Source: an uncultured delta proteobacterium
Lineage (GTDB): Bacteria; Desulfobacterota; Desulfomonilia; UBA1062
Direction of reading: 5' to 3'
Assembly: GCA_963752595.1 (NCBI GenBank)
Contig: CAVVYZ010000027.1
Span: 1-14,345, forward strand
DNA length: 14,345 bases
How positions within the stretch are numbered: the first letter of the stretch is position 1; every line of letters starts with the position of its first letter. Positions 1-14,345 of this stretch are shown one piece after another. The notes below the pieces were generated by a model, which did no database searches, had not been told where the DNA came from, and worked only from the letters and a program-made list of their open reading frames with translations. The position numbers and the translations under genes were made by a program.

Positions 1-50
1 ACCACGTAGGTCCTTTTTGCGCCTCTGTCCAGTTGCCGGATCTGATCCAT
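1..50 (-). CDS. 5' end of a gene running off the left edge (MDQIRQLDRGAKRTYV...), product unknown
   Basis: ATG at 50..48 is preceded by GGGGAG-ACCA and the frame is open to the window edge. An alternative in-frame GTG at 5..3 is preceded by AAAGGA-CCTAC. Confidence 0.4.
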   Translation of the reverse strand, partial: MDQIRQLDRGAKRTYV

Positions 51-58
51 TGGTCTCC

Positions 59-74
59 CCAAGGGCCGTGCCAA
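59..74 (-). promoter_or_regulatory. Possible sigma54 (-24/-12) promoter, imperfect -12
   Basis: Minus strand reads TTGGCACG-GCCC-TTGG versus consensus YTGGCACG-N4-TTGC. The -12 element is GG rather than GC. It fits a leadered mRNA only if the GTG at 5 is the start. Confidence 0.25.
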
Positions 75-171
75 GGTTTTTTAAGAATACCTTTTCCGAA
101 AGACTATGACTGGAGCATTTTATCATGGATGTCCTGGAGGACAGTTCTGGGGTGGGTTTTTCTTTGTAAAG

Positions 172-211
172 GCTTTCCACGGCCCCCTGCTGCCAAGGGA
201 CCGTGAAAAGC
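172..211 (-). terminator. Strong RNA hairpin just 3' of the 219..503 gene (terminator or 3' stabiliser)
   Basis: Minus strand GCUUUUCACGGUCCCUUG-GCAG-CAGGGGGCCGUGGAAAGC forms an 18-bp stem. Its three non-Watson-Crick positions are G.U pairs on this strand only. It starts 7 nt after the stop and is followed by a short CUUU. Confidence 0.65.
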
Positions 212-218
212 AGCGACA

Positions 219-503
219 TCACCAAGCCGCCTTTACCCGGCTGGAAAGTTTGAACAGAGAAATAGCCTTATTTTTCTGGTGCGAATGTCTCTGGTCGTAG
301 AGAAAATGAGCTTGCTTCTTGAGAAAGTGACTGCTGATTGCATCCCTGAGTGTCTGGGAGTGCCCCTGCTCAAAGAGCCTGTTCACAAATACCTGGAGAA
401 CAGCCATCTCGTCACGGGTACCCTTGAGCCGGTTCAGAATGTCCATCAGCTCATCGGTCTTCTGTACAGCCTGTTCTCTTGCATCTATAACCGTGTTCTC
501 CAT
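219..503 (-). CDS. Small hypothetical protein (94 aa, predicted helical)
   Basis: Strong SD AGAGGAGGAG 5 nt before the ATG and a strand-specific hairpin after the stop. No family recognised. Confidence 0.7.
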   Translation of the reverse strand: MENTVIDAREQAVQKTDELMDILNRLKGTRDEMAVLQVFVNRLFEQGHSQTLRDAISSHFLKKQAHFLYDQRHSHQKNKAISLFKLSSRVKAAW

Positions 504-676
504 GATTACTCCTCCTCTTGCTGGAAATGATCTCGGTGAACTTCATTGGAGATATCCCTATACATAACTCAAAGAGCTGTCTTGACAAGAAGGCATCCCG
601 GTTTTCGAATACGGTGCTTCCGGTAAATACCAAGACCTCCCTTTTAACCTCTTGGGTGATCTTTTCGATAACATAA

Positions 677-692
677 TCAAATCTTATGCCAG
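677..692 (-). promoter_or_regulatory. Candidate sigma54 promoter for the 219..503 gene
   Basis: Minus strand CTGGCAT-AAGAT-TTGA has correct -24/-12 spacing, with a GA variant at -12. A near-consensus IHF-like site (TATCAAATAATTC) lies upstream at 769..781. Confidence 0.4.
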
Positions 693-856
693 CTTGAGAC
701 GGTATGTGCGCAGATACGATCACGCATTGAGCCTAAGAGGCTGTATTCCCATGGGTATTAATTACAATGAATTATTTGATATGCAACGGAGACTCTTTAC
801 AAGGATTTCATCCATGCAAGCATCATAGGCATAAAGATTCAAAGAGCAGCATGGCA

Positions 857-889
857 CCCGTTATCCGAGAACTGTACCGGATAAACAGG
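857..889. repeat. Inverted repeat TTATCCG-N10-CGGATAA (core 861..884); hairpin 3' of the YdcF gene or a protein-binding palindrome
   Basis: Perfect 7-bp arms. On the minus strand the stem extends by CCUG/CGGG with a G.U pair and one bulge. No U-tract follows. Confidence 0.45.
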
Positions 890-958
890 ACATTTATAAC
901 ATGCTGTTTTACTTTCTAGTCGTACGCATCATCCTCATGAGAGGAGGCAGCTATTCTC

Positions 959-1624
959 TCACCCCGCATGAAGTATCTGGGAAACCGTGTCCACGAAAGA
1001 GGTAAGCATCTGTGAGAATCTCTGGTAAAACAGGAACCATGCTATCTTCGAATACTCCATGGCTATCCAGGACAGGCTCTTCCGGTCCTTCCACCAGGCC
1101 TTGCGAATCTTTTCATACCGGTCCGGCACACAGGTAATTACATAAGTATCCTTAGGGAAGACATATTCTGCCAGCAGCTTCACCCTTCGCATATGGTAGG
1201 GAGAGCTTACGATAATCGCTGAATCGAAGCCATAGGCTTTCATGTATTCTTTTGCAAGAATGAGCTCGAGATGGGTGTTCTCGTGCCAGCGATACTGCGG
1301 GTGCACTTTATAGGCAAGGATGGACAGCTCGGAAAGCTCTTCTTTGACCTGCATGGGGATCTTTTCCTTTGCATCCGTAACCTTCACGAGCCGGTAACGG
1401 GGAGGTATGAGAAGGACATTGGAAAAGCCTTCCGAAATAAGCTGGTATGCTTCTTTTTTTCTTTCAAGGTATTCCGTTCCGAGAAGCGGTATGATGCAAT
1501 CAGCCTTCTTTGGTTCTTCTCGATAAATAAGATACTTTGGTGCATTATGAGAAAGGATAGGCAAGGAGCCTAGGGCTAAGAGGATGAGACATGCTATGAT
1601 GAAGTATTTTAGTTTCCTCTTCAT
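959..1624 (-). CDS. YdcF/DUF218 (ElyC/SanA-like) family membrane-anchored protein
   Basis: N-terminal basic plus hydrophobic anchor. Family motifs PKKADCIIPLLG, ENTHLE and AIIVSSPYHMRR, plus a C-terminal WW...MEYSKIAWF segment. AAGGGA lies upstream of the ATG. Confidence 0.88.
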   Translation of the reverse strand: MKRKLKYFIIACLILLALGSLPILSHNAPKYLIYREEPKKADCIIPLLGTEYLERKKEAYQLISEGFSNVLLIPPRYRLVKVTDAKEKIPMQVKEELSELSILAYKVHPQYRWHENTHLELILAKEYMKAYGFDSAIIVSSPYHMRRVKLLAEYVFPKDTYVITCVPDRYEKIRKAWWKDRKSLSWIAMEYSKIAWFLFYQRFSQMLTSFVDTVSQILHAG

Positions 1625-2021
1625 GAGCAGTGTATCCCTTTGGTTTTCCGTACCTTTATCCTGATCCGGGCATTTCAGATATTGTGGACGATGCCGGGAT
1701 CTCCTTAGCTGGGGTTATATTTCCACGCAAACCATCTGACATTTCCAACGACTCGTCCTTTCCTGTCGCCAGGTACTGAAATTACGTCTCATAAAGGTTT
1801 TGTCCTAGTATTAATACTCTAAATCATCCTTGCTGGTCAATCGTGGAATTCCTTATGGAACAGGGATAACCCGGGAGTGGGTGCGATTTTCGAGAAGAGC
1901 CTTAAACCGGGAAAAGCTTCAGGGAAGTGACTGATATATTAAAGGATGGAATGCCTGGAAAATAAGCGCGGGTAGTATTATATTTTTATGGTGTTTATGA
2001 GCTTATATTGCATTGAAGGTA

Positions 2022-2050
2022 TTGACTTGTATGGAATATGGTTTTATCCT
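2022..2050 (+). promoter_or_regulatory. Sigma70-type promoter of the Sel1-repeat gene
   Basis: TTGACT (2022-2027), 17-nt spacer, TATCCT (2045-2050), with an AT-rich upstream stretch. A G-rich SD precedes ATG 2104. Confidence 0.6.
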
Positions 2051-2103
2051 TAGCGCGTTATTATTGAGGGCAACTGTTTTTATGTGAGGGGAGAGGGGTC
2101 TCT

Positions 2104-2574
2104 ATGAGCAGGCATGGACTGGTCGTACCGCTGATGATCATCGCAAGTACATGCTTGGCTATCCTGCACTTCCCTCTGCAGGCATGGGCTGGTGAAGGGG
2201 AAGAATTCAATGCGGCAATTAGAGAGAATCTCTTGCCGGCTCAACAGGGAGATCCTCAGGCCCAGGTCTTTCTTGGGTATCTCTACGAAACCGGTCAGGG
2301 TGTTCAACAGAATTTCTCAAGGGCGGCCCAGTGGTATTGGAAGGCGGCAGAACAGGGGAATGCCATCGCGCAGTACCAGCTCGGGAACATGTACCACCTC
2401 GGGAAAGGCGTTTCCCAGAACTATATCCTCGCATACATGTGGCTTGATCTGGCTGCCACGGGTGGGAATCCAAATGCAAAGGAGATCAGGAGGCTGATCG
2501 CAAGCAAAATGAGTGCTGTCGAAATCGCCGATGCCAAGCGGAAGTCCGAGGAATGGAAACCGAAGAAGAAGTGA
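2104..2574 (+). CDS. Secreted Sel1-like repeat (SLR/TPR) protein
   Basis: Signal peptide ending LQAWA. Two full Sel1 repeats (AQVFLGYLYETGQGVQQNFSRAAQWYWKAAEQG; AQYQLGNMYHLGKGVSQNYILAYMWLDLAATGG) and a typical capping helix. Confidence 0.92.
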   Translation: MSRHGLVVPLMIIASTCLAILHFPLQAWAGEGEEFNAAIRENLLPAQQGDPQAQVFLGYLYETGQGVQQNFSRAAQWYWKAAEQGNAIAQYQLGNMYHLGKGVSQNYILAYMWLDLAATGGNPNAKEIRRLIASKMSAVEIADAKRKSEEWKPKKK

Positions 2575-2637
2575 GCCGGTTTTACTCAGGTTTTATAGGA
2601 GTATCTTTTTGAAGGCGGCATGTTCGGATTGGATGAG

Positions 2638-3393
2638 CTATAATTTATTGCTCAAACAATATCTCTTTTCTACCTCATCATGAGGTGCATCATTTATCGG
2701 GGCATTCTGCAGAAAGCCAAGGGTAAGCTACTTGTTGCTGTTAATCCTGTATACATCGGATGTCAGGAGGTGTGCATTCCAGCAGGAAGGATTGATCATT
2801 ATTGCAGCTTCAGCTATGGTATATGCATCTATGGTGCAGTGTCCTGCTCTAGCATGCGCCTTCCTAAGGCCTCGCAAAGACTTGCGATCCCTGCTGGCGA
2901 TGCCGTCGATCCCCTTATCTGTATCCATACCGAACGAGCGCATGAACTCTTCAAAGGCAAGGAGCAAAGCTTCTGTATCCTTGACCGCAACGCTTGTCAG
3001 AATCATCCCTGCGAGAATCGCCTTCCCGGCATCGGCATCTATCCTGTCGTCCGCATCGAGCCACAACAGATAATCCAAGACGGCGAGCTCTATGGATTTA
3101 TTGCGGGCCGCGGAAAAATCATCACACCAGTTAAAATGGCCGATGTTCACGCCGTAAGACCGCAGGATCTCCAGTGTCCTGTCAGGGGACCCGGTATCGA
3201 CTACAACCACCTCATCAAAGATCCCCTTGATGTCTTCCAGCAGGCTTCCGATATTTTTTTCCTCATTCTTCACGATCATTACAACGCCGAGACGGGAGCG
3301 GATGTCTCCGGATATCGGCAACGAAGAATTGCGGAAAGAAACTGGAGGCTTTCCCGATGAGGTCGGTTTCCTTTCATGAATACTGTTAGTCAT
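2638..3393 (-). pseudogene. Degenerate GT2 family glycosyltransferase (remnant of a GT2-TPR protein); annotated ORF 2728..3393
   Basis: GT2 N-terminal motifs MIVKNEE, VVVDTGSPDRT, WCDDFSAARN and WLDADD are present. The rest of the GT-A fold is missing and the sequence switches to a helical, TPR-like tail. After the TAG at 2728-2730 the frame continues for 29 codons (LTLGFLQNAPINDAPHDEVEKRY...) to a TAG at 2638-2640. Confidence 0.7.
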
Positions 3394-3577: not shown

Positions 3578-4402
3578 ATGGCTAAAGTAACACTTCATCG
3601 GACCAGTCGGGTGAAACCGGAAAGTGCCTATCTGCAGCAATACCGGAAGAACATAACATCTCAATCCGGAGAAGATGGGGTAATTGAAAAAATATTTGAA
3701 ACCATGGGAGCGAGCAACAAATGGTGTGTCGAGTTCGGCGCCTGGGATGGCAAGCATTTCAGCAATTCCTGGAATTTGATTAACAATCATGACTGGAAGG
3801 GAGTGCTCATTGAGGGCAACGCGGACAGGCATAAGGAATTAACACAGACCTATGCCGACAACCCCAATGTAATTGCATTCAACAGGCTGGTCGATATGGC
3901 AGCCGGGGAAAACTCTCTTGATTCCATTTTAGGCCAGACGCCGATTCCTAAGGATTTCGACTTCCTGTGCATCGATATCGATGGGTGCGACTGGCAGATC
4001 TGGAAGTCCGTCGCTGAGTATACTCCTCGGCTTGTATCTATCGAATTCAATCCGACAATACCAAACAACGTGCATTTCGTCCAGGATGACGATATGAGGG
4101 TCGCTCACGGTTCATCTTTGCGGGCAATGATCGAGCTCGGCAAAGAAAAGGGGTACGATCTGGTGGCCACGACGCTTTACAACGGCTTTTTTGTCAGGAA
4201 CGAGGATTTCCAAAAGTTCGGCATTGCTGATAATTCCATTGATGCAATGCATACTCCTGATGGCTATGAGAGCTTTTTCTTCCAGCTTTATGATGGGACG
4301 GTGGTGCTTGCCGGATGCAGTCAGCTGGTCTGGCAAGGCGTTCCGATCAGCCTTGAAGACATTCAGGTCCTGCCGAGGGCATTGAGACGATATAAAGGAT
4401 AG
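3578..4402 (+). CDS. FkbM-like (Methyltransf_21-related) SAM-dependent methyltransferase
   Basis: Motifs SQSGEDGVIEKIF, CVEFGAWDG...SNS, WKGVLIEG, DFLCIDIDGCDW and PRLVSIEFNP are typical of this family, which often occurs in glycan loci. Confidence 0.8.
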   Translation: MAKVTLHRTSRVKPESAYLQQYRKNITSQSGEDGVIEKIFETMGASNKWCVEFGAWDGKHFSNSWNLINNHDWKGVLIEGNADRHKELTQTYADNPNVIAFNRLVDMAAGENSLDSILGQTPIPKDFDFLCIDIDGCDWQIWKSVAEYTPRLVSIEFNPTIPNNVHFVQDDDMRVAHGSSLRAMIELGKEKGYDLVATTLYNGFFVRNEDFQKFGIADNSIDAMHTPDGYESFFFQLYDGTVVLAGCSQLVWQGVPISLEDIQVLPRALRRYKG

Positions 4403-4553
4403 GAAGCCCAGTATCTTTTTAGAAATCCATCGATCAAAACCTGCTGAAGACATCCTTGCCGGGTGGTCATAGGCACGGTACATCCTTCTCGCCATCGGAT
4501 CGGTGAGGGATACTCCAGGAAAAACCCCCGGGAGGATCCCAGTGAAATTCTGC

Positions 4554-5067
4554 TTATTTTTCAGCTATCATATTGATGCTGATGGGCATGCCGTTAAAAG
4601 TAAATGAGCTGGTGTCATCAAAAATCCAAAAAATGTCAACCGTCTTGAGATTACAGAACCCTGCTTCATTCAGGAAGGCCGACAGTATCTCCCCGTTGAA
4701 AGCCGTCTTGTGGTAATCATATTCATCCACATGACCGCCGAGGATCATTCTCATCACGGTAAAACGATCCTTCAGGCTCAGGGTGTCTTTCTTGAGAAAG
4801 AGTTCGGCCAGCTTGTCAAGATCAGGCACACTCACATAGAATCTGCCGCCGGGTTTCATTACCCTGCGCCATTCCTTGAGTACCTGGAGCAACTCCCCGG
4901 CATAATCGAAATGTTCAAGTACATGGGAGGCATAGATCTCGTCAAATGTATTGTCATCGAACCGTGATAAATCCTTCGCATTTCCGATATGATCAACATA
5001 CGGTCCTTCTAAGGCATTGAATATTTCCCATTCAGGATTAGATTTCCTTCCTCCGATGTGTAGCTTT
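4554..5067 (-). other. C-terminal class I SAM methyltransferase domain of gene C (Methyltransf_11/COG4627-like)
   Basis: Motifs KLHIGG, FDDNTFDEIYASHVLEHF, LKEWRRVMKPGGRFYVSVPD and ISINMIAEK. Confidence 0.85.
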
Positions 5068-8000
5068 CTGGTTTTGCTCTTCACCCCTTCGTTATCCTGC
5101 TGCAAGGAGCTGAGGGCATTGTCTCTGTTGGAAACAGCGTCCTCATGCTCCGGATCGATCCTGATGGCCTCATTGAAATGGTGTAGTGCCATCTGCTGAT
5201 TACCTGTCTGCCAGTAAACAACTCCGACATTGTTATGGACAGCGGCGTTATCAGGATCAATCTCGATCGCCTTATGAAAGGCACTCATCGCATCTTCCAG
5301 GCGACCTGCGGCAAAGAGTTCTTCTCCCTGGTGGTTGATTTCGTTTGCGAGTGCGATGTGTTGCTGAATGCCTTCAGGAACGGTTTCTGCAGGTTCGGAA
5401 GAGTTCACGCTGTCCCCAATACAACCGTTGCCCGATGAGCACTGTTTATTCCATATTCTTCTGTACTCGTTTTCCAGTCTTTTAGTAAAACCCCGTGCAT
5501 CTGTAAGATGTGATTTCTCCATCATTGTCCTGAGGTTCTGTCGCAGATGTTTCAACCTTTCAACAGCTTCAGCAAGGCTGACAGCCTTGGCAATATAATC
5601 ATCCGGAGAATTTGCAGCGAACTCTGCAATGCCCATGTTCGAGAGGATGCTGAAAGAAACTCTCGATACATGGCTGTGGCCTATGAGCGTGATAACCGGC
5701 ACCCCCATCCAGAGGGCCTCGCAGGTTGTCGTTGTGCCGTTGTACGGGAACGTATCAAGGGCAATGTCGATCTTGTTGTAAAGATCAAGGTGATCGAAAA
5801 AAGAAGGAGTGTCGCCAAAGAGTGTTATCCGGTCTTGTGGAACACCGTTCTTGCTAAACACATCGAACAGAAGATCCTGTGTTCCCTTATCAGATAATGA
5901 GCCAGATTTCAGGATGAGGCGGGAATCAGGGATCTTGACCATTATCTCCGCCCAGGTTTGTACGACATGTTCGGTTATCTTGGCCCGGTGGTTGAACGAT
6001 CCGAACGTGACATGTCCGGCGGAGAGTGCAGGGAGTTTTTTTACTATAGGCGCAACCTCAGGGGGCTGATAACACAGAAAACCACCTGAAAGTCGTATAA
6101 GCTCCTCAGTGGCGAAGCGGCTTTGATTATCCACCGGGTCTGCCCAGGAATCCGTAATACGGTAATCCATGGTTTTCAATGCCGTGGTATCAGGATAGCC
6201 GAGATAGGTCACCTGGACAGGTGCCGGCTTGCGGGCGAATACAAGCATGCGGTTGTTTGCCGTATGCCCGGCAAGGTCAATGAGAATGTCGATTCTATCC
6301 TGACGTATCAGGCCGGCGACTTCTTCATCGGATCTGCCCCGGATGTCTCGCCATTCATGTGCCAGGGCTTTGAATCTTTTCGTAAAAGAATCGGACTCAA
6401 GAACATCCGAGTAACAATAGACCGTAAATGCGCCGGGATCGTGCGAGGAGAGTATTCCTTTCAAGAAGTAGGCAACTGAGTGGATCCTGAAATCAGGAGA
6501 CACATACCCGATGCGGATGGTTCTGCCTTCAGTTCTGTCGGGGAAGAAAGTCCTCGCCTTATCCGTAAAGGCCTCTGTATGCTTCTTTGCCCAATCCTCA
6601 TGAAAACTGAGAACGGCATCCTGGTCGGTAGAATCATCATAATGCAACGCAAGCAGCAGGTTTGAATGGGCATCGTTATACCCGGGCCTGAGTTCCACGG
6701 CCTTCTTATAGCTGACAATGGCATCTTGTATCCTGCCCTGATCTTTGTAGAGATTCCCCAGGTTGTTGTATGCCTCCGGATTGTCGGGCTGTATCTCGAT
6801 TGCCTTCAGATAGGAAGCGGTAGCATCTGCGAAATTGATCATGCTTTTCAACGTATTTGCCATATTGTAGTATGCATTGGCATATCCCGGCTGCAAGGAA
6901 ATAGCGTTCTTGTATGCATTCAGTGAATCTTCCAGCCTTCCTGAGTCTCTGTAGACATTACCGAGATTATTGTATGCCTGGGCATATGATGGCTGTATCT
7001 GGATAATCTTTCCAAAGGCGGCTTCGGCGGATGTATAGTTTTCCATATCCAGGAATACATTGCCGAGATTATTATAAGCTTGAACGTATCCAGGGTTAAT
7101 CCGGATGGCCTTTTCATAAGAGTCTACAGCCCTACGGTAGTTCTTTGTCTCCTTGAAGACATTGCCGAGATTATAAAAAGCCTCGGCATAGTCGGTTTGA
7201 ATTTCAGCGGCTTTTTGAAAGGCTGCTATCGCTTCTTGGAACTTTCCCAGCTTTCTGAATACAGTACCGAGGTTATTGTACGCCTGAGCAAAATCCGGCT
7301 TCAGGCTGATTGCCTTCTCATACTGCTCAGTTGCAGGATCCATCTTTCCCAGGGCCTTGAACACATTCCCCAGATTGCAGTGGTATGAGGGCATATCCGG
7401 TTTTATGGCAAGCGCTTTGCTGATATAGTTTTCAGCAAGATCATAATTCCCTGCTTGATAGGATATGACGCCAAGGTTATGGAGCGCTGTTGCGTTGCCG
7501 GGGTCCTGTTCGAGCACCTTGAGAAATGTACTTCTGGCCTCATCCATATGTCCTGATCCGAAAGACGCTTCTCCTTCCCGGATAAGGGATTTCAGATGAT
7601 TGGAAATGAACGGCTGTTCTGTTTCTTTAGAGACTTCTCCGTTAATGACATCAGGCATGGCCTTCTCCTTACTGCTCCATTTTTTCCACGCGGTTCTCAA
7701 TTCATGTTCAAGATTATGTGTGAAACCGGCTGCGTCCATCAAAGGCGACTTTTCCATCATGTCCCTGAGATTATACCGTAGGTGTTTAAGCCTTTCGATA
7801 TCTTCTGCAAGGTGTATTGCATTGGCTATATACTCAGCAGGAGAACCTCCTGCGAGCTCCGAGAGGCCGATGCTCGAAAGGATGCTGAAACTGACCCGTG
7901 AGACATGGATGCCGCCTTTGAGCGCAATCACCGGAACTCCCATCCAGAGGGCCTCGCAGGTTGTCGTTGTGCCGTTGTATGGGAATGTATCGAGTGCTAT

Positions 8001-9961
8001 ATCGATGGTATTGTAAAATTCGAAATGATCTTTTTTGGATGCTGTAAATCCTAAGGCAGTAACCCTTTCCGGGGGTATGCCCTGTTTGGTGAAGAGCTGA
8101 AGCAGTTGTTCTCTCGTCTTTAAATCGGAAAGGGATTTTGCTTTCAGGATCAGCCGTGAACCAGACACCTTGCGGAGGAGCTCGGACCAGGTTTCGATTG
8201 TTCTTTTCGTGATCTTTGCCCTGTTGTTAAAGGAGCCGAAGGTTATGTTTCCTGACTTCAATACCGGAAGATCGGTTATATCAGGTGCCCCCTCCGGGGG
8301 TTTGTAGCAGAGGAAACAATTGAGAAGCCTGATGAGTTTTTCCGAGTGCCATTTGTCGGTTATGCCGGGCGGATCGGCAAGCGCATCGGTAATGCGGTAA
8401 TCAACGGTATCAAGCCCTGTCGTATTGGGGTACCCGAGGTAGGTAACCTGGACAGGCGCAGGCTTCCCGGCAAAGAGTGTCATGCGGTTGTTCCCTGTGT
8501 GTCCCGAGAGATCCACCAGGATATCGATTCCATCCCTTTGAATCATATCCGAGACGGTTCCATCGGGAAGGCCGTAAATTTTTCTCCAGTGATCCGCTAT
8601 TTTTCGAAAGAGCTCGGTTGCAGGGTCTTCACGCTCGGCATTTGAATAACAGAATACCTCAAAGGAATCCCTGTCGTGTGCTGCAATAACTGACTGGATA
8701 AAATATGCAACGGAGTGGACGCGGAAATCCGGAGACACATACCCTATGCGCAATCTCCTGTCCGGTGATCTGTCATTTTTGTGTTCCGGAATATTGTTTC
8801 GAAGTGACTCAGCATGTTCGGCTGCCCATTCTCTATGGAGCTTAAACAACTCATCCGGGTTGATCGCTTCTAGATAATGCATGGTAAGCAGGATATTCGA
8901 GTGTATCTCGGCAAGGGGGAAGGAGGGTTTGACGCCATTTTGGGGACACTTTTCCAGTGCGGTCCTATAACAAGATAATGCTTTTTCTCCATTCCCTTGA
9001 TCTTTGTATATACTCCCCATATTATTTGCTGCAATCGAGAGGCAGGGATTAAGGTCAATGGCTTTCTGATAAGACTCCAGGGCTTCACTGAGTCTGCCAA
9101 GGGCCTCAAGGCCCTTTCCGAGATTGTAATACGCTTCCGGTGAATCGTTTTTAAGCTCGAGCGCCCGACGCAGTTTTGATATCCCTTCCTCGGTATGGCC
9201 GGAATCTATGAGCGCTGTCCCGAGATTGTTCCACGCATCTACATTCTCAGGATTTATCTCAAGCACTCTTTGATATAATTCCGCTGCCCTGTCGTACTCC
9301 CTCTTGCGCTGGAAAGCGCTTGCCAGAGAAAAGAGAATACCTGCATCCCCGGGTTTTATTCCGCCTGCACGGTTGAGATACTCAAGCGCCTCTTCTGTCC
9401 GCCCTCGTTCCAGGGACAGTCTCCCAGCGCCTTAAGTGCATCCGCATCCTTGGGGTGAAGGTCTGCCGCCTTCTGATAATGCAGGCAGGCTTTTTCAGGT
9501 TCTCCTCGTTCCCGGTAAAGATTGCCAAGATTGGAGTATGCGGCTGCGTAGTCAGGATTTAAGGTAATTGCCTTGCTATAAGCGTCAAGCGCTTCCATGT
9601 GTTGCCCGGAGCTTCTCAAGGCAGCGCCTAGATTGTTGTACGCCTCTGCATAATCTGGTTTCAGCGTGATGGCCTGCCTGTAATATTCGGCGGCCTGCAG
9701 GTGGTCGTCTTTCATCCGGAAGGCGTTTCCGAGATTGCAGGCGTATTCGGGAGATGCATTGTTTATGGATAGCGCTTTGCGTATAAGGTTAACGGCGTTA
9801 TCCGGATCATTCCGTTGATATGAAACAACCCCGAGGAGGTGCAATGCATCCGGATGGTCAGGGTGTGCAGCGAGTATTTCCCTGTAGATCGCTTCAGCCT
9901 TTTCCAATCGGCCGGACCGATGGTTTTTTATGGCTGTCTCAAGCAGTTTTCCCGTCTTCAT
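4554..9961 (-). CDS. Gene C: giant TPR-GT41-TPR-GT41-TPR-methyltransferase protein (SPINDLY-family glycosyltransferase), about 1802 aa after correcting one frameshift
   Basis: The intact ORF 4554..9266 holds two complete GT41 modules (GYVSPDF-x2-HSV, DLxGHT, QVTYLGYPxTT, FGSFNxRAKI, LDTFPYNGTTTTCEALWMGVP), TPR arrays and a C-terminal MTase. Adding one G to the run at 9423-9425 joins it to the TPR ORF 9356..10105. The start is taken as ATG 9961 (GGAG-ATCTC-ATG); ATG 10015 is an alternative. Confidence 0.9.
5704..7979. repeat. Direct repeat: identical 41-bp copies at 5704..5744 and 7939..7979 within the two GT41 modules of gene C
   Basis: CCCATCCAGAGGGCCTCGCAGGTTGTCGTTGTGCCGTTGTA occurs twice, 2235 bp (745 codons) apart. 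Diverged copies lie near 10595-10635 and 12940-12980. Confidence 0.85.
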
Positions 9962-9995
9962 GAGATCTCCGGGTTCATTTTTCACATCCCCGTGT

Positions 9996-12316
9996 TTAGG
10001 ATTTGTTTTGCTCATGGTCGTTCTCAAGACGTTCTTTCTCTTCCAGATTGGTCCTGGCATCAGTATGGTTAGGGTCCATGGTGAGGATGGCTTGAAAGAG
10101 TTCAATGGCAGACCTGATCTTTCCCGTATGCCAATAAACGACCCCGAGATCGTTCATTGCTGTAACATTATGAGGATCAATCTCGAGTATCTGCATGAAA
10201 ATATTCTCTGCCTCTTTGATACGGCCTGAATTGAAGAGATCCTCTCCTTTATTTATAAACCGCTCGATTTCATGCAAGTCTGAGCTGTTGAGTGATTTCT
10301 TCGGCCTTTGTGAGAAGCTGTTCTTTTCGCACCACCTTCGCCATATCATACGGTAACTTTTTTCCAGATCGACTGTGAAGCCTTTTTCGTCCATGAGGGG
10401 AGAATGTTTGATCGTGTCCCTGAGGCCGGTGCGGAAACGTCCAAGCCTTTCCGGATCTCCTGCAAGCAGGACGGCCTTGTGAATATAATCCGGAATGGAT
10501 TCTGCAATGAGATCCTCAAACCCGCAATGCTTCAGAATGCTTTTCCCGACTCTTGATGCGTGCATGCTTCCTGTGAGGGTTATGACCGGCACTCCCATCC
10601 ATAGTGCCTCGCAGGTAGTTGTCGTGCCATTGTACGGGAAGGTATCGAGTGCAATATCAATGCTGTTATACATTGCTATATGTTCCGACAAAGACTGTAT
10701 GGATTTCAGTATGGTGACTCTGTCAGGAGAGATGCCGTTCTCCATAAACAGGCCTGTTATGCCTGCTTTCTCCTGTTCGCTCAGGAAGTTTTTGAATTTC
10801 AAAAAAAATCTGGATCGGGGAACGTTAGCCAAGATGGCAGACCATGCGTTTATGGCGTTTTCCGTTATCTTTGCCCTCTTGTTGAAACAACCGAAGGTAA
10901 TGATCCCTGATGTAAGAGCAGGGAGGGGGCCTGGACCCGGGTGTACTCAGGAGGCCTGTAGCAGAGAAATCCGTGAGGCATCCTGACCAATTCTTCGGTA
11001 TTCAGGCGTTCTGCGCTTCCCGGCGGGTCCGTGATGGCATCGACCAGCCGGTAGTCCATCGTCAAAAGCCCTGTAGTATCCGGATAGCCGAGATATGTTG
11101 CCTGAATCGGGGCAGGTTTTTGGCAAATACCTAAGACGGTTGTTTGCGGTATGCCCAGCAAGGTCAATCAGGATATCGATACGGTCCTCGAAAATGAGGT
11201 TGAAGACTTTTTCATCGGTCATCCCGCAGATATCCCGCCATGTTACGGGAAGTATTCTGAGCCTCTCCGTCACATAGTCTGGATGAGCGGAGTCGGAATA
11301 ACAGAAGACTTCAAAGTCGTCTCTGTCATAAGATGCGAAAAGCGGCTCAATGAAATGAGCGACCGGATGAGAATGAAAGTCAGGGGATACATAACCGATC
11401 CGCAGTTTTTTCTCAGGGCTTTTGTCAGTTCTTCCTGAATGAACGGTCTCCATGGCAACGCGTGCATCTCTGCCCACTTTGTATGCTCAAGGAAAATCTC
11501 TTCGGGAGAGGCGGCATCCGTATAATGCATTGCCAAAAGAAGGTTGGAATGGGTTTTGTGAAGGCTTCGATCAATTTCCAGGCATTTTCTATAGCAGAGT
11601 ACGGCCTCTCCACGTTGCCTTGGCTGACAGAGATCCAAGCTTCTTCTCTGCCTCTATGCTGGACGGTTGGAGTTTTATTGCCTGTTAGAAATATCCTATT
11701 GCATCCACCTCATTGCCGATATCCATGAGGGTGACGCCCAGATTGATATAGGCATCCGGGAAACCCTTTTTTATCGCCTGGTTGTAGTATTCAATGGCCT
11801 TGTCGATATCATGAAGCCCTTTACAGGCATTCCCGAGATTATAAAGTGCCTCTGCATAGTCAGACTTCAGTTTCAACGCCTGTAAGAGGTATGGAAGTGC
11901 TTCCTCGTATTTGCCGGCATCATTCAGGGTTGCGCCGAGATTGTTATAAGCTTCAGCATATTTCGGATTCAGCCGGATTACCTCTTCGAACATCCGGACA
12001 GCGCTGCTTACTCTTCCGGCATACTTCAGGACGTTCCCAAGACTGCATCTGAAATCGGACCTCTCAGGACATAACTGTACAGCTTTATTTAACAGATCTT
12101 CGGCGGTGGATAGTTCTCCTGACTGGAAGGCGGCAATCCCATCATGTGAAGGGCATCAGAGTCTTCAGCGTTATCATTGAGAATCTGTCCGTATATGCCT
12201 TTTGCATCCTCAATCTTTCCTTCCCGATGTAGGCGCAGTGCTTCTCCCAGCAGATCATTCCTGCGGCAGGATGAGTCAGCTCTGATTGCTTTTATCTCTT
12301 TTTTCAGCTCGGCCAT
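9996..12316 (-). pseudogene. Gene B: TPR-GT41-TPR SPINDLY-family glycosyltransferase (about 770 aa), broken here by about 7 indels and one stop; may be intact in the real genome
   Basis: ORF pieces 12089..12316, 11685..11993, 11270..11638, 10947..11477, 10865..11167 and 9996..10832 are collinear parts of one TPR-GT41 protein. Breaks lie at 12138-40, 11685-87 (in-frame TAA), about 11630, 11610 and 11430, 11130-31, 11117-21 and 10939-41. There is no clear SD before ATG 12316, so the start is uncertain. Confidence 0.8.
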
Positions 12317-12336
12317 ATAATTATAAATGTATAAAG

Positions 12337-14345
12337 TCAGTCATCCTTAGTGTGTTCGTTATGTATTTTATGGATCTCTTCCAGATTGATCCGGGCATCC
12401 CGGCAATCGGGATCTATTACAAGAACCATCTGAAAGGTCTCGATAGCCTTTCTCGGGCTGCCCTGTATGCCAGTACAGAACGCCAAGGTCGTTCAGTGCC
12501 GTAATGTCGTCAGGATCTTTTTCCAGCGCATGAAGGAAAGCGCACTTGGCATCAAGGAAATGTCCCGACTCGAAGAGCTGTTCTCCTTCATGGATAAGTA
12601 TGGCCACTTGTTCCTCAACCGGATCTCGGTTTGCGACTGATTCTAACCTGGTATTTACCGGTTGCTCCTCACACCATCTGTGCCACATCGCCCGGTATTC
12701 CTTTTCAAGGTTTCGTGTGAAATTCTCCTTCTATCCATGAGGAATGAGCTTCGCATTATGGATCTTAAGTCCCTGCGAAGATGAGTCAATCTATCTATAC
12801 TCTTTGCAAGGGTGGCTGCTTTCATGATGTATCCATCAGTTGTCTCCGCCACAAGATCATCAAGGCCGATATTTGACAAGATGCTGTAGCTCACCCTGAA
12901 TATATGGGTATCTCCTTTGAGCGCAATGACCGGCGCCCCCCATCCAAAGCCCTTCACAGGTGGTTGTCGTGCCGTTATACGGGAAGGTATCGAGGCCTAT
13001 GTCGACAGAGTTGTACAGATTTAGGTGGTCTTCTTTTGCCGGTATGTTGCCGACTGCCGTTATTCGATCTGCACTGATGCCTTGTCCTTCAAAGAGACCC
13101 AGGATATAGTTCCTTGTCGATTCATCGCTTAAAGCTGCTGATTTCAGAATGAGCCGGGAGTCCGGAACAAGATGCAGTATCTCAGACCATATCCCGATTA
13201 TTGTGTCGGATATCTTGGATCTGTTGTTAAAGCATCCAAAGGTAATAAATCCGGACGCGGATGCCGGTAGACCCTTTACCTCGGGAGATTCCTCAGGCGG
13301 TTTATAACATAGGAACCCGTGAGGCAGCCTGATGATCCTTTCCGTATGAAGGTGATCTGTCATGCCTGGGGGGTCGGTCCATGCATCGGTTATCCTGTAG
13401 TCGATGGTCTCCAGTCCTGTCGTGTTTGGATATCCTATGTACGTGACCTGTATCGGAGCCGGTTTGCGTGCGAACAGAGTAAGTCTGTTGTTGCCGGTAT
13501 GGCCGGAAAGATCTACAAGGATATCGATACCGTCATTCTGAATGATTGCAGCAGCTTCATCATCCGTGGCCGCGGAGATATCCCGCCAGTGGTCGGCAAG
13601 ATTCTTGAATTCGATTGTTTTGTTATCCGGACGGTCAAGGTTCGAATAGCAGAAGATCTCAAAGTTTTCCCTGTCATTGGCTTCAATGATCGGCTCGATA
13701 TAATAGGCTACGGAGTGTATCCTGAAGTCTGGAGATACGTATCCTACTTTAAGCCTTTTACTGGGGCTCTGGTCATTTTTATGCGCGGGTATGAGAGTTT
13801 TCAGATGCGACGCATAAATCCTTGCCCATCTCAGGTGCTGTTCGTATATCATGTCAGGCTCGATAGGCTCTGCATATTGTATCAGGAAAATAATATTGGA
13901 GTATACACCGGATGCATTTGACGGCTTCAGTTCCAATGCTTTGTAGTAACATGCAAGGGACTCGGAAAGGCGGCCCTGATCCTTCAGCAAGTTTCCCATA
14001 TTATTATAGGCACTGCTGAAATCGGGACTTAACGTTATAGCCTTCTGGTAGCAGGAGATGGCCTCGCCTATCTTCCTCTGCTTATCGAGCCCTTGGCCCA
14101 GGTTATATACCATTTCCGCCGATTCCGGTTGTAAAGCCGATGCCTGGCGGAGGCACAGCACTGCGTCATCATATTCGCCAATATCCAGCAGAGTGACCCC
14201 AAGATTGTTCAGCGCATCCGCATTGTCCGGCATCAATTGCAATGATTTCTGAAGGTGTTTGACTGCATCAATGTAGTTCTTCTCATGCTTCAAAGCGGTT
14301 CCGAGATTATAGTGAGCCGGGGGAAAATCAGGGTTTAATCGGACT
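12337..14345 (-). CDS. Gene A (5'-partial): TPR-GT41-TPR SPINDLY-family glycosyltransferase with three frameshifts near its 3' end
   Basis: The frame is open from the window edge (VRLNPDFPPAHYNLG...) through TPRs and GT41 motifs (SPDFRIHSV, DLSGHT, FGCFNNRSKI, LDTFPYNGTTTTCEGLWMG). Shifts occur at 12936-41 (extra G), about 12730 and 12449-51 (extra A). The corrected end is ...KAIETFQMVLVIDPDCRDARINLEEIHKIHNEHTKDD, then TGA at 12337-39. Confidence 0.85.

Follow-up and report, generated by a model that had tools for sequence, protein, structure and literature searches.

We analyzed a 14,345-nt stretch of DNA, hereafter the window, which is the entire contig C27 of the genome of an uncultured delta proteobacterium (GenBank assembly GCA_963752595.1; G000 below). 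The window carries three genes, A, B and C, that together encode a tandem array of four catalytic modules of glycosyltransferase family 41 (GT41) and a fused methyltransferase, with flagellin as the probable target. The G000 assembly comprises 31 contigs and is 84 % complete and 6.8 % contaminated. Throughout, G-numbers denote genomes, L-numbers comparison loci and P-numbers database proteins.

A tandem array of SPINDLY-type modules

The four modules (A, B, C1 and C2; Table 1) lie on the minus strand and are the only PF13844 matches in a genome-wide profile search of G000. Gene A stops at 12337 and B begins with an ATG at 12316, leaving a gap of 20 bp; a further 34 bp separate the B stop at 9996 from the ATG of C at 9961, with a GTG at 9985 as an alternative start. 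These gaps bear out the three co-oriented, closely spaced genes of a first-pass annotation made from the sequence alone. Using a purpose-built hidden Markov model, tetratricopeptide repeats (TPRs) were found ahead of every module, four in the truncated A, five in B and seven plus seven in C, and an additional one or two follow the final module of each gene. The same annotation had described four complete modules, each with its own TPR array: modules and repeats are indeed present, but they are complete only when breaks in the reading frames are read through, and A is truncated, its 5′ end being lost at the contig end with about 182 N-terminal codons absent. An intact orthologous A-B-C array is found in a relative of the same family (L011, taken as contig G065:C10). 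With an E value of 4e-146 to Arabidopsis SPINDLY (SPY), the four-module array is a genuine feature and not a chance match.

Table 1. Features of the window
Feature	Position	Strand	Remarks
Gene A: TPR array - GT41 (12674-13903) - C-terminal TPR	12337..14345	-	76 % identical to intact 846-aa L011:4008-6545
Gene B: TPR array - GT41 (10332-11548) - C-terminal TPRs	9996..12316	-	67 % identical to intact 777-aa L011:6572-8902
Gene C: TPR - GT41 (C1, 7677-8903) - TPR - GT41 (C2, 5442-6668) - TPR - methyltransferase	4554..9961	-	84 % identical to intact database protein P0001, all 1810 aa
C-terminal minimal class I S-adenosylmethionine (SAM)-dependent methyltransferase domain of gene C, 172 aa	4557..5072	-	Methyltransf_11, E 3.4e-9
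FkbM-like putative methyltransferase, 274 aa, intact	3578..4402	+	convergent with gene C; PF05050, 21.9 bits
GT2-TPR glycosyltransferase remnant, internally deleted, of the family's ~548-aa protein	2728..3393	-	residues 3-83 match at 58-65 %, then a weak C-terminal piece only
Sel1-repeat gene	2104..2574	+	marks the distal border of the island; conserved
DUF218 gene	959..1624	-	border marker within the genus
Stretch 95 % identical to G000:C31:13957-16968	2..3019		different glycosylation cassette beyond it in C31

SPY is the best solved match of the modules, ahead of OGT and TtOGT. The modules match SPY 355-844 continuously (491 bits), whereas the match to OGT is split around an intervening domain that they lack, and the TPR array followed by a two-lobed GT41 catalytic region (PF13844) is the architecture of the SPY-like clan. 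Residue positions were transferred by hand from the window-SPINDLY alignment. Among the residues that SPY reportedly needs to be active or to bind GDP-fucose (PMC9715652, PMC10027727), D491, H495, V497, K665, K689, H728, Y744, T747, T748 and E752 are retained in all four modules. The best match and these essential residues uphold the SPINDLY-type assignment made at first pass, and the retained residues predict active enzymes with a guanosine-type pocket. Since K689, H728 and Y744 are kept, the donor is likely to be a GDP-sugar; gmd is present in G000. Other assignments were tried and rejected: the OGT/SEC clan, whose L866/R904/C917 signature and intervening domain are not found, HMW1C-like N-glycosyltransferases (NF049992, 61.5 bits against a cut-off of 1000), and the NCBIfam matches to MamA, PilW and LcrH, which arise from the TPRs.

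At three of the mapped positions the modules differ from SPY and from one another. That of A731 is occupied by L, M, F and L across the modules, neither the Ala of SPY nor the Arg of OGT in the K689/A731/Y744 signature given in PMC10027727. S496 is replaced by Pro in B, giving His-Pro rather than His-Ser at the acceptor site, and N662 by Lys in B and His in C2. Both the Pro and the Lys of B are shared with the B gene of L011. When 46 modules were placed in a maximum-likelihood tree, A, B, C1 and C2 each grouped in a clade of its own, with full support, together with the modules at the corresponding position in relatives. From these position-specific clades and the shared residues of B, the four modules are old and have been kept apart, and they are not interchangeable copies. 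Among distant multi-module proteins (P0006-P0120), we observed Arg for K665 in 114 of 347 modules, His for Y744 in 115 and Asn for K689 in 89; such variants may form a second active-site type with another donor.

Methyltransferases and a GT2-TPR remnant beside the array

The array was also said to end in a fused SAM methyltransferase, and the Methyltransf_11 match at the C terminus of gene C confirms it. The structure model of this tail (pLDDT 95) has a class I SAM-dependent Rossmann-type fold with a glycine-rich motif I; no close solved relative was found in a structure comparison, and 1628 of 1700 candidate homologues are short proteins. The tail varies among orthologues of gene C, being Methyltransf_11 in the window and in P0001-P0003 and two FkbM domains in L011, P0004 and P0005.

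An FkbM-like methyltransferase and a GT2 remnant had likewise been placed next to the array. Both are there, but the FkbM-like gene lies on the opposite strand and scores below the PF05050 cut-off of 22.7 bits, with no NCBIfam match (TIGR01444) at 1e-8 and no solved relative found for its protein. It is 61 % identical to a gene of L012 located after a GT41-methyltransferase, and the trio of GT41, C-type methyltransferase and FkbM-like gene recurs in L012 and L066, suggesting that methylation travels with the transferase. The proposed coupling of glycosylation to methylation thus draws support from the tail variants of gene C and from published enterobacterial islands (PMC4875605). We saw no convincing inverted repeats flanking the inverted FkbM-like gene, and hence no sign of an invertible switch.

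The ~548-aa GT2-TPR protein from which the remnant derives is intact in all five GT41-free islands and lost or remnant in three of five judgeable GT41 islands: G065 lacks it, G008 has a fragment and the window a deletion remnant. A remnant is also found on contig C31 of G000. That the array replaced this usual priming transferase of the family has partial support.

The window fills a probable flagellin island slot

In the family of G000, a variable low-GC block with glycosyltransferases and tailoring enzymes, here called the island, lies between Sel1/DUF218 and fliC-flaG-fliD, and the window fills this slot. At L011 the order is fliD-flaG-fliC, then the divergent A (846 aa), B (777 aa) and C (2417 aa; two modules, two FkbM domains), followed by an FkbM-GT2 fusion, CDP-glucose and tailoring genes and finally Sel1. 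Seven of the 11 other genomes of the genus have an assembled flagellin; in six of these the contig that carries it also carries Sel1, 6-17 kb away across a stretch of glycosylation genes; the seventh contig stops at fliC. GT41 occurs in 8 of 52 genomes of the order (G000 and seven others). In all four carriers with long contigs (G008, G063, G064 and G065) the first GT41 gene lies 0.4-2.4 kb from fliC, and in one of these the flagellin methylase gene fliB stands between the two; the contigs of the remaining three end within GT41 genes, and one has Sel1 next. The island of G008 holds one GT41 gene, and those of G063 and G064 two each. Synteny with related genomes, to which the first-pass annotation had pointed as a check, was therefore found both for the array (L011) and for its fliC neighborhood (all four assessable carriers).

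G000 itself has fliF, rod and hook genes, flgL and fliW, yet fliC, flaG, fliD and the conserved genes beyond fliD were not found in its assembly, an assembly gap at the place where the window ends. The flagellin-family match in G000 was rejected as fliC, being FlgL beside fliW.

In relatives, a sigma-28-like site precedes fliC and a sigma-54-like site precedes the first island gene, as called with the consensus patterns of these factors. The sigma-54-like site is present in 8 of 9 relatives compared with 37 of 3184 upstream regions in G000, a count for which several start points were fixed after a first look at the sites and in which the relatives are not independent. The island-facing sigma-54-like and fliC-facing sigma-28-like sites are kept whatever the cassette (L011:3944, L023:2634, L059:8857, L062:1109, L031:7429, L033:16780, L035:15703). 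Flagellins beside GT41 arrays (L011, G063, G064) have variable regions of 115-125 residues with 25-28 % Ser/Thr. Flagellin length was dropped as a marker of island type because it is not clean, the G007 flagellin being long without GT41. Within the genus, GT41-free islands encode giant multi-domain glycosyltransferases of up to 2560 aa (WbsX, GT2, GT1-like, methyltransferase, TPR) at L031:8894-16573, L027:8829-17617 and L029:4773-9566; these come closer than the window to an actual chain-building line.

Proposed function

We propose that the window is a flagellin glycosylation island, in which SPINDLY-type modules put single sugars on flagellin and methyltransferases methylate them, and we consider this probable. 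A sigma-54 promoter would drive transcription of the array in the direction leading away from fliC, as in relatives, the corresponding region being cut off in the window. Its TPR arrays would capture the unassembled flagellin monomer, by analogy with FlmG (PMC7591256), and each module would attach one sugar to Ser or Thr of the flagellin variable region in the cytoplasm, before export. Instead of building a single chain, the modules would work side by side, each on its own sites or with a slightly different donor; methylation of the attached sugars would fall to the two methyltransferase-like domains. A dedicated protein target outside the window had been predicted at first pass; this stands, with flagellin as the most likely protein, while the pilin, S-layer and cytosolic candidates named alongside it are not favored.

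Several observations weigh against this proposal. Flagellin is absent from the G000 assembly, so that its linkage to the array in the G000 strain is one we infer. At distant GT41 loci from genome and metagenome scans, flagellin was found in only 11 of 87, and in 6 of the 45 that have 6 kb or more of flanking sequence, two of these six being from the family of G000; on metagenome contig L102 a type IV pilin gene (L102:6555-7058) directly follows the GT41 array. Flagellin is thus a likely target for the family of G000 and not for SPY-like proteins at large. As to the donor, gmd occurs in 5 of the 8 GT41-carrying genomes of the order and in 23 of the 44 that have no GT41, a lack of enrichment that gives no support to GDP-fucose, and the L011 island encodes CDP-glucose enzymes. 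TtOGT, a solved bacterial relative, showed no activity in vitro (PMC4683255). The GT2-TPR protein is intact beside two GT41 genes in G063 and G064, contrary to simple replacement. Finally, gene B contains an in-frame TAA (11685-11687) that is atypical of an error, since stops are rare in well-aligned real genes of G000, and B may be truly dead.

Consensus errors or a decaying array

Compared with the intact orthologues of L011, gene A has three frameshifts (at about 12937, 12728 and 12448), B has six in addition to the TAA, and C has one (at about 9414-9419, in the first TPR array; the same single break appears against P0001). This corresponds to densities of 1.5, 2.6 and 0.18 per kb, and as assembled only modules C1 and C2 sit within an open frame. 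The array could therefore be decaying, with A and B pseudogenes in the G000 strain and only C, with its two modules and methyltransferase, still modifying flagellin: nine of the ten frameshifts and the stop fall in A and B, and the neighboring GT2-TPR gene is a genuine deletion remnant.

We obtained an error baseline by frameshift-aware alignment of conserved genes from two genus relatives to G000. Of 300 reference open reading frames (ORFs) 233 were tested, and 203 were retained at ≥70 % identity and ≥80 % cover, some of them spurious opposite-strand frames that inflate the stop count. In these 203 genes we found 144 frameshifts affecting 56 genes, or 0.66 per kb with a regional range of 0-2.6 per kb, and 19 of the 160 genes at ≥80 % identity carry at least two frameshifts at ≥1.5 per kb, thus reaching the density of A and B. 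The frameshifted genes include what we take, from their sequence alone, to be DNA polymerase I and aminoacyl-tRNA ligases. Furthermore, A and B (77 % and 72 % identical to L011) are not more diverged than the unbroken C1 and C2 (72 % and 66 %) and retain all essential residues, and the breaks concentrate toward the contig end. Because the baseline density is comparable and A and B are as near to their orthologues as C1 and C2, the frameshifts of all three genes are most likely consensus errors of sequencing or assembly, and we regard decay as unlikely. They are a caution about the G000 assembly and not biology: with indel errors occurring in patches across G000, every pseudogene call in this assembly is suspect. 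Examples of such patches in conserved genes are contig C2:187000-200000, contig C2:15000-19000, C9:246352 and C12:8739.

Other targets and division of labor among the modules

A second alternative is that the array modifies proteins other than flagellin, such as those of the cap or hook, pilins, or a broad set of cytosolic proteins in the manner of plant SPY, its adjacency to fliC merely marking a recombination hot spot for surface-glycan genes. Most distant GT41 loci are without a nearby flagellin, the L102 array is linked to a pilin, the Ogt of Synechococcus acts on pilin (10.1101/2021.07.06.449578), and four modules look many for one 365-aa flagellin. Nevertheless, every assessable GT41 of the family occupies the slot at fliC and is preceded by the sigma-54-like site that GT2-type islands also have, and the flagellins beside GT41 arrays have the Ser/Thr-rich variable regions described above. 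We consider other targets improbable. Among the 22 of 85 listed neighbors that were scanned, other distant GT41 arrays lie next to sulfotransferases or unrelated genes.

The first-pass annotation had read the array as a sequential line adding several different sugars. In such an assembly line one module would prime flagellin, the others would extend the chain with different sugars and the methyltransferase would cap it. The four position-specific clades across genera, their fixed active-site differences (Pro496 and Lys662 in B; His, Tyr or Leu at 662 in C2) and the terminal position of the methyltransferase are in keeping with this idea. On the other hand, the nucleotide and sugar contacts K665, K689, H728, Y744, T747, T748 and E752 are identical in all four modules, each module has kept its own protein-binding TPR array, some islands have only a single GT41 (G008) or a pair (G063, G064), and G063-G065 have separate genes for chain-extending GT2 domains. 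Characterized OGT and SPY enzymes, moreover, attach single sugars to protein (PMC9715652). With the same donor-side residues and a protein-binding array in each module, a chain-building line is the less likely arrangement, and we give it little credence.

A different and tentative idea, which we rate as possible though doubtful, is that SPINDLY-like modules of bacterial flagellin islands have diversified into position-specific enzymes that differ in sugar donor or acceptor site, so that A-B-C1-C2 would write a multi-sugar methylated pattern on one protein, could replace GT2-TPR and would be swapped between co-existing strains. If so, the donor code of GT41 could be read from the four modules as a natural panel (Ser or Pro at 496, Asn, Lys or His at 662 and a bulky residue at 731).

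Probably two strains in one bin

The 3 kb that the window shares with contig C31 ends inside the GT2-TPR remnant, which in C31 is deleted differently. Within the shared DUF218 gene, 30 changed codons are synonymous and 17 nonsynonymous, with 34 of 51 changes at third positions, an excess that indicates real divergence between window and C31. In C31 the shared stretch leads to core genes in one direction; in the opposite direction lies a different glycosylation cassette, in an island with a GC content of 0.46; from their sequence we take the genes of this cassette to be radical-SAM, transketolase-like, FkbM and RmlD-like (G000:C31:1-16968). The simplest reading is that the bin contains two strains whose islands in this slot differ. 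At a GC content of 0.48, the window ranks 16th lowest when compared with 272 equal-sized pieces of G000, whose median is 0.53. Despite this GC content, the short contig and the 6.8 % contamination of the bin, it is highly improbable that the window is a binning contaminant unrelated to G000, given the 3 kb at 95 % identity to a contig of the same bin that leads into core genes, the orthologous array within the family and the equally GC-poor island of C31.

Relation to known systems

Enterobacterial flagellin islands with GT41 of the SPINDLY family (COG3914) have been described in about 200 strains (De Maayer and Cowan 2016, PMC4875605; also PMC7526173). These are variable islands beside fliC with PF13844 GT41 and separate FkbM methyltransferases; the window resembles them in its PF13844 modules, its separate FkbM-like gene and its place in a variable slot that adjoins fliC in relatives, and the methyltransferase (AdoMet) domain fused to nearly all of their GT41 proteins recalls gene C. 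According to PMC4875605 these islands have one to three glycosyltransferases each, and there too the function is predicted. Their GT41 proteins measure 1078-1203 aa, a size from which we infer one module each, whereas the window has four modules in three genes, two of them in one 1810-aa chain. Glycosyltransferase families are mutually exclusive in the enterobacterial islands, while in the family of G000 the GT41 and GT2-TPR cassettes alternate or coexist. Multi-module GT41 proteins are also frequent: the best 120 homologues of gene C, a score-biased sample from many lineages, hold two (39), three (55) or four (26) modules. The first pass thus overstated the novelty of the locus, which is an elaborate form of a familiar kind of island. 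In the open literature, subscription journals lying outside the search, we found no publication on tandem GT41 modules and none that demonstrates the donor of a SPY-type flagellin transferase.

FlmQ of Burkholderia is GT41-like. As a flagellin glycosyltransferase with an appendage subunit encoded nearby (PMC4462625), it is comparable to the proposed system. Caulobacter FlmG (PMC7591256), likened here by description and not by sequence, is a soluble flagellin O-glycosyltransferase of TPR and GT-B type whose TPR binds flagellin; unlike the window, it is single-module and transfers pseudaminic acid. The Ogt of Synechococcus elongatus (10.1101/2021.07.06.449578) is a bacterial TPR-GT41 with a pilin encoded nearby, but it uses UDP-GlcNAc on pilin. 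Thermobaculum TtOGT (5djs, PMC4683255), with undetectable activity, is again a bacterial TPR-GT41. Arabidopsis SPINDLY, a protein O-fucosyltransferase (7y4i, 8dtf; PMC9715652, PMC10027727), shares the essential residues and the lack of an intervening domain; the window departs from it in the Leu, Met or Phe at A731, the Pro at S496 in B and the varied N662, as well as in its multiple modules, methyltransferase fusion, C-terminal TPRs and predicted dedicated target. Few bacterial SPY-like enzymes are characterized (PMC10027727). The locus and its intact orthologues combine a defined candidate substrate with a fused methyltransferase and four paralogues whose active-site differences are fixed, making the donor question directly testable.

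Minor features

An Rfam search of the window returned no families, and a scan of the window for sigma-70 promoters and terminators was uninformative (24 sites, with 15.5 expected). A stem-loop with a T run lies at 4528-4542, immediately past the end of gene C. Two small minus-strand ORFs without a Pfam match (219-503 and 451-723) are kept in C31 and are also present in G001 and G011. Elsewhere in G000, the end of contig C7 (G000:C7:53491-64445) carries what we take from the sequence to be Cas1/Cas2, a reverse-transcriptase-like ORF and Cmr-like genes.

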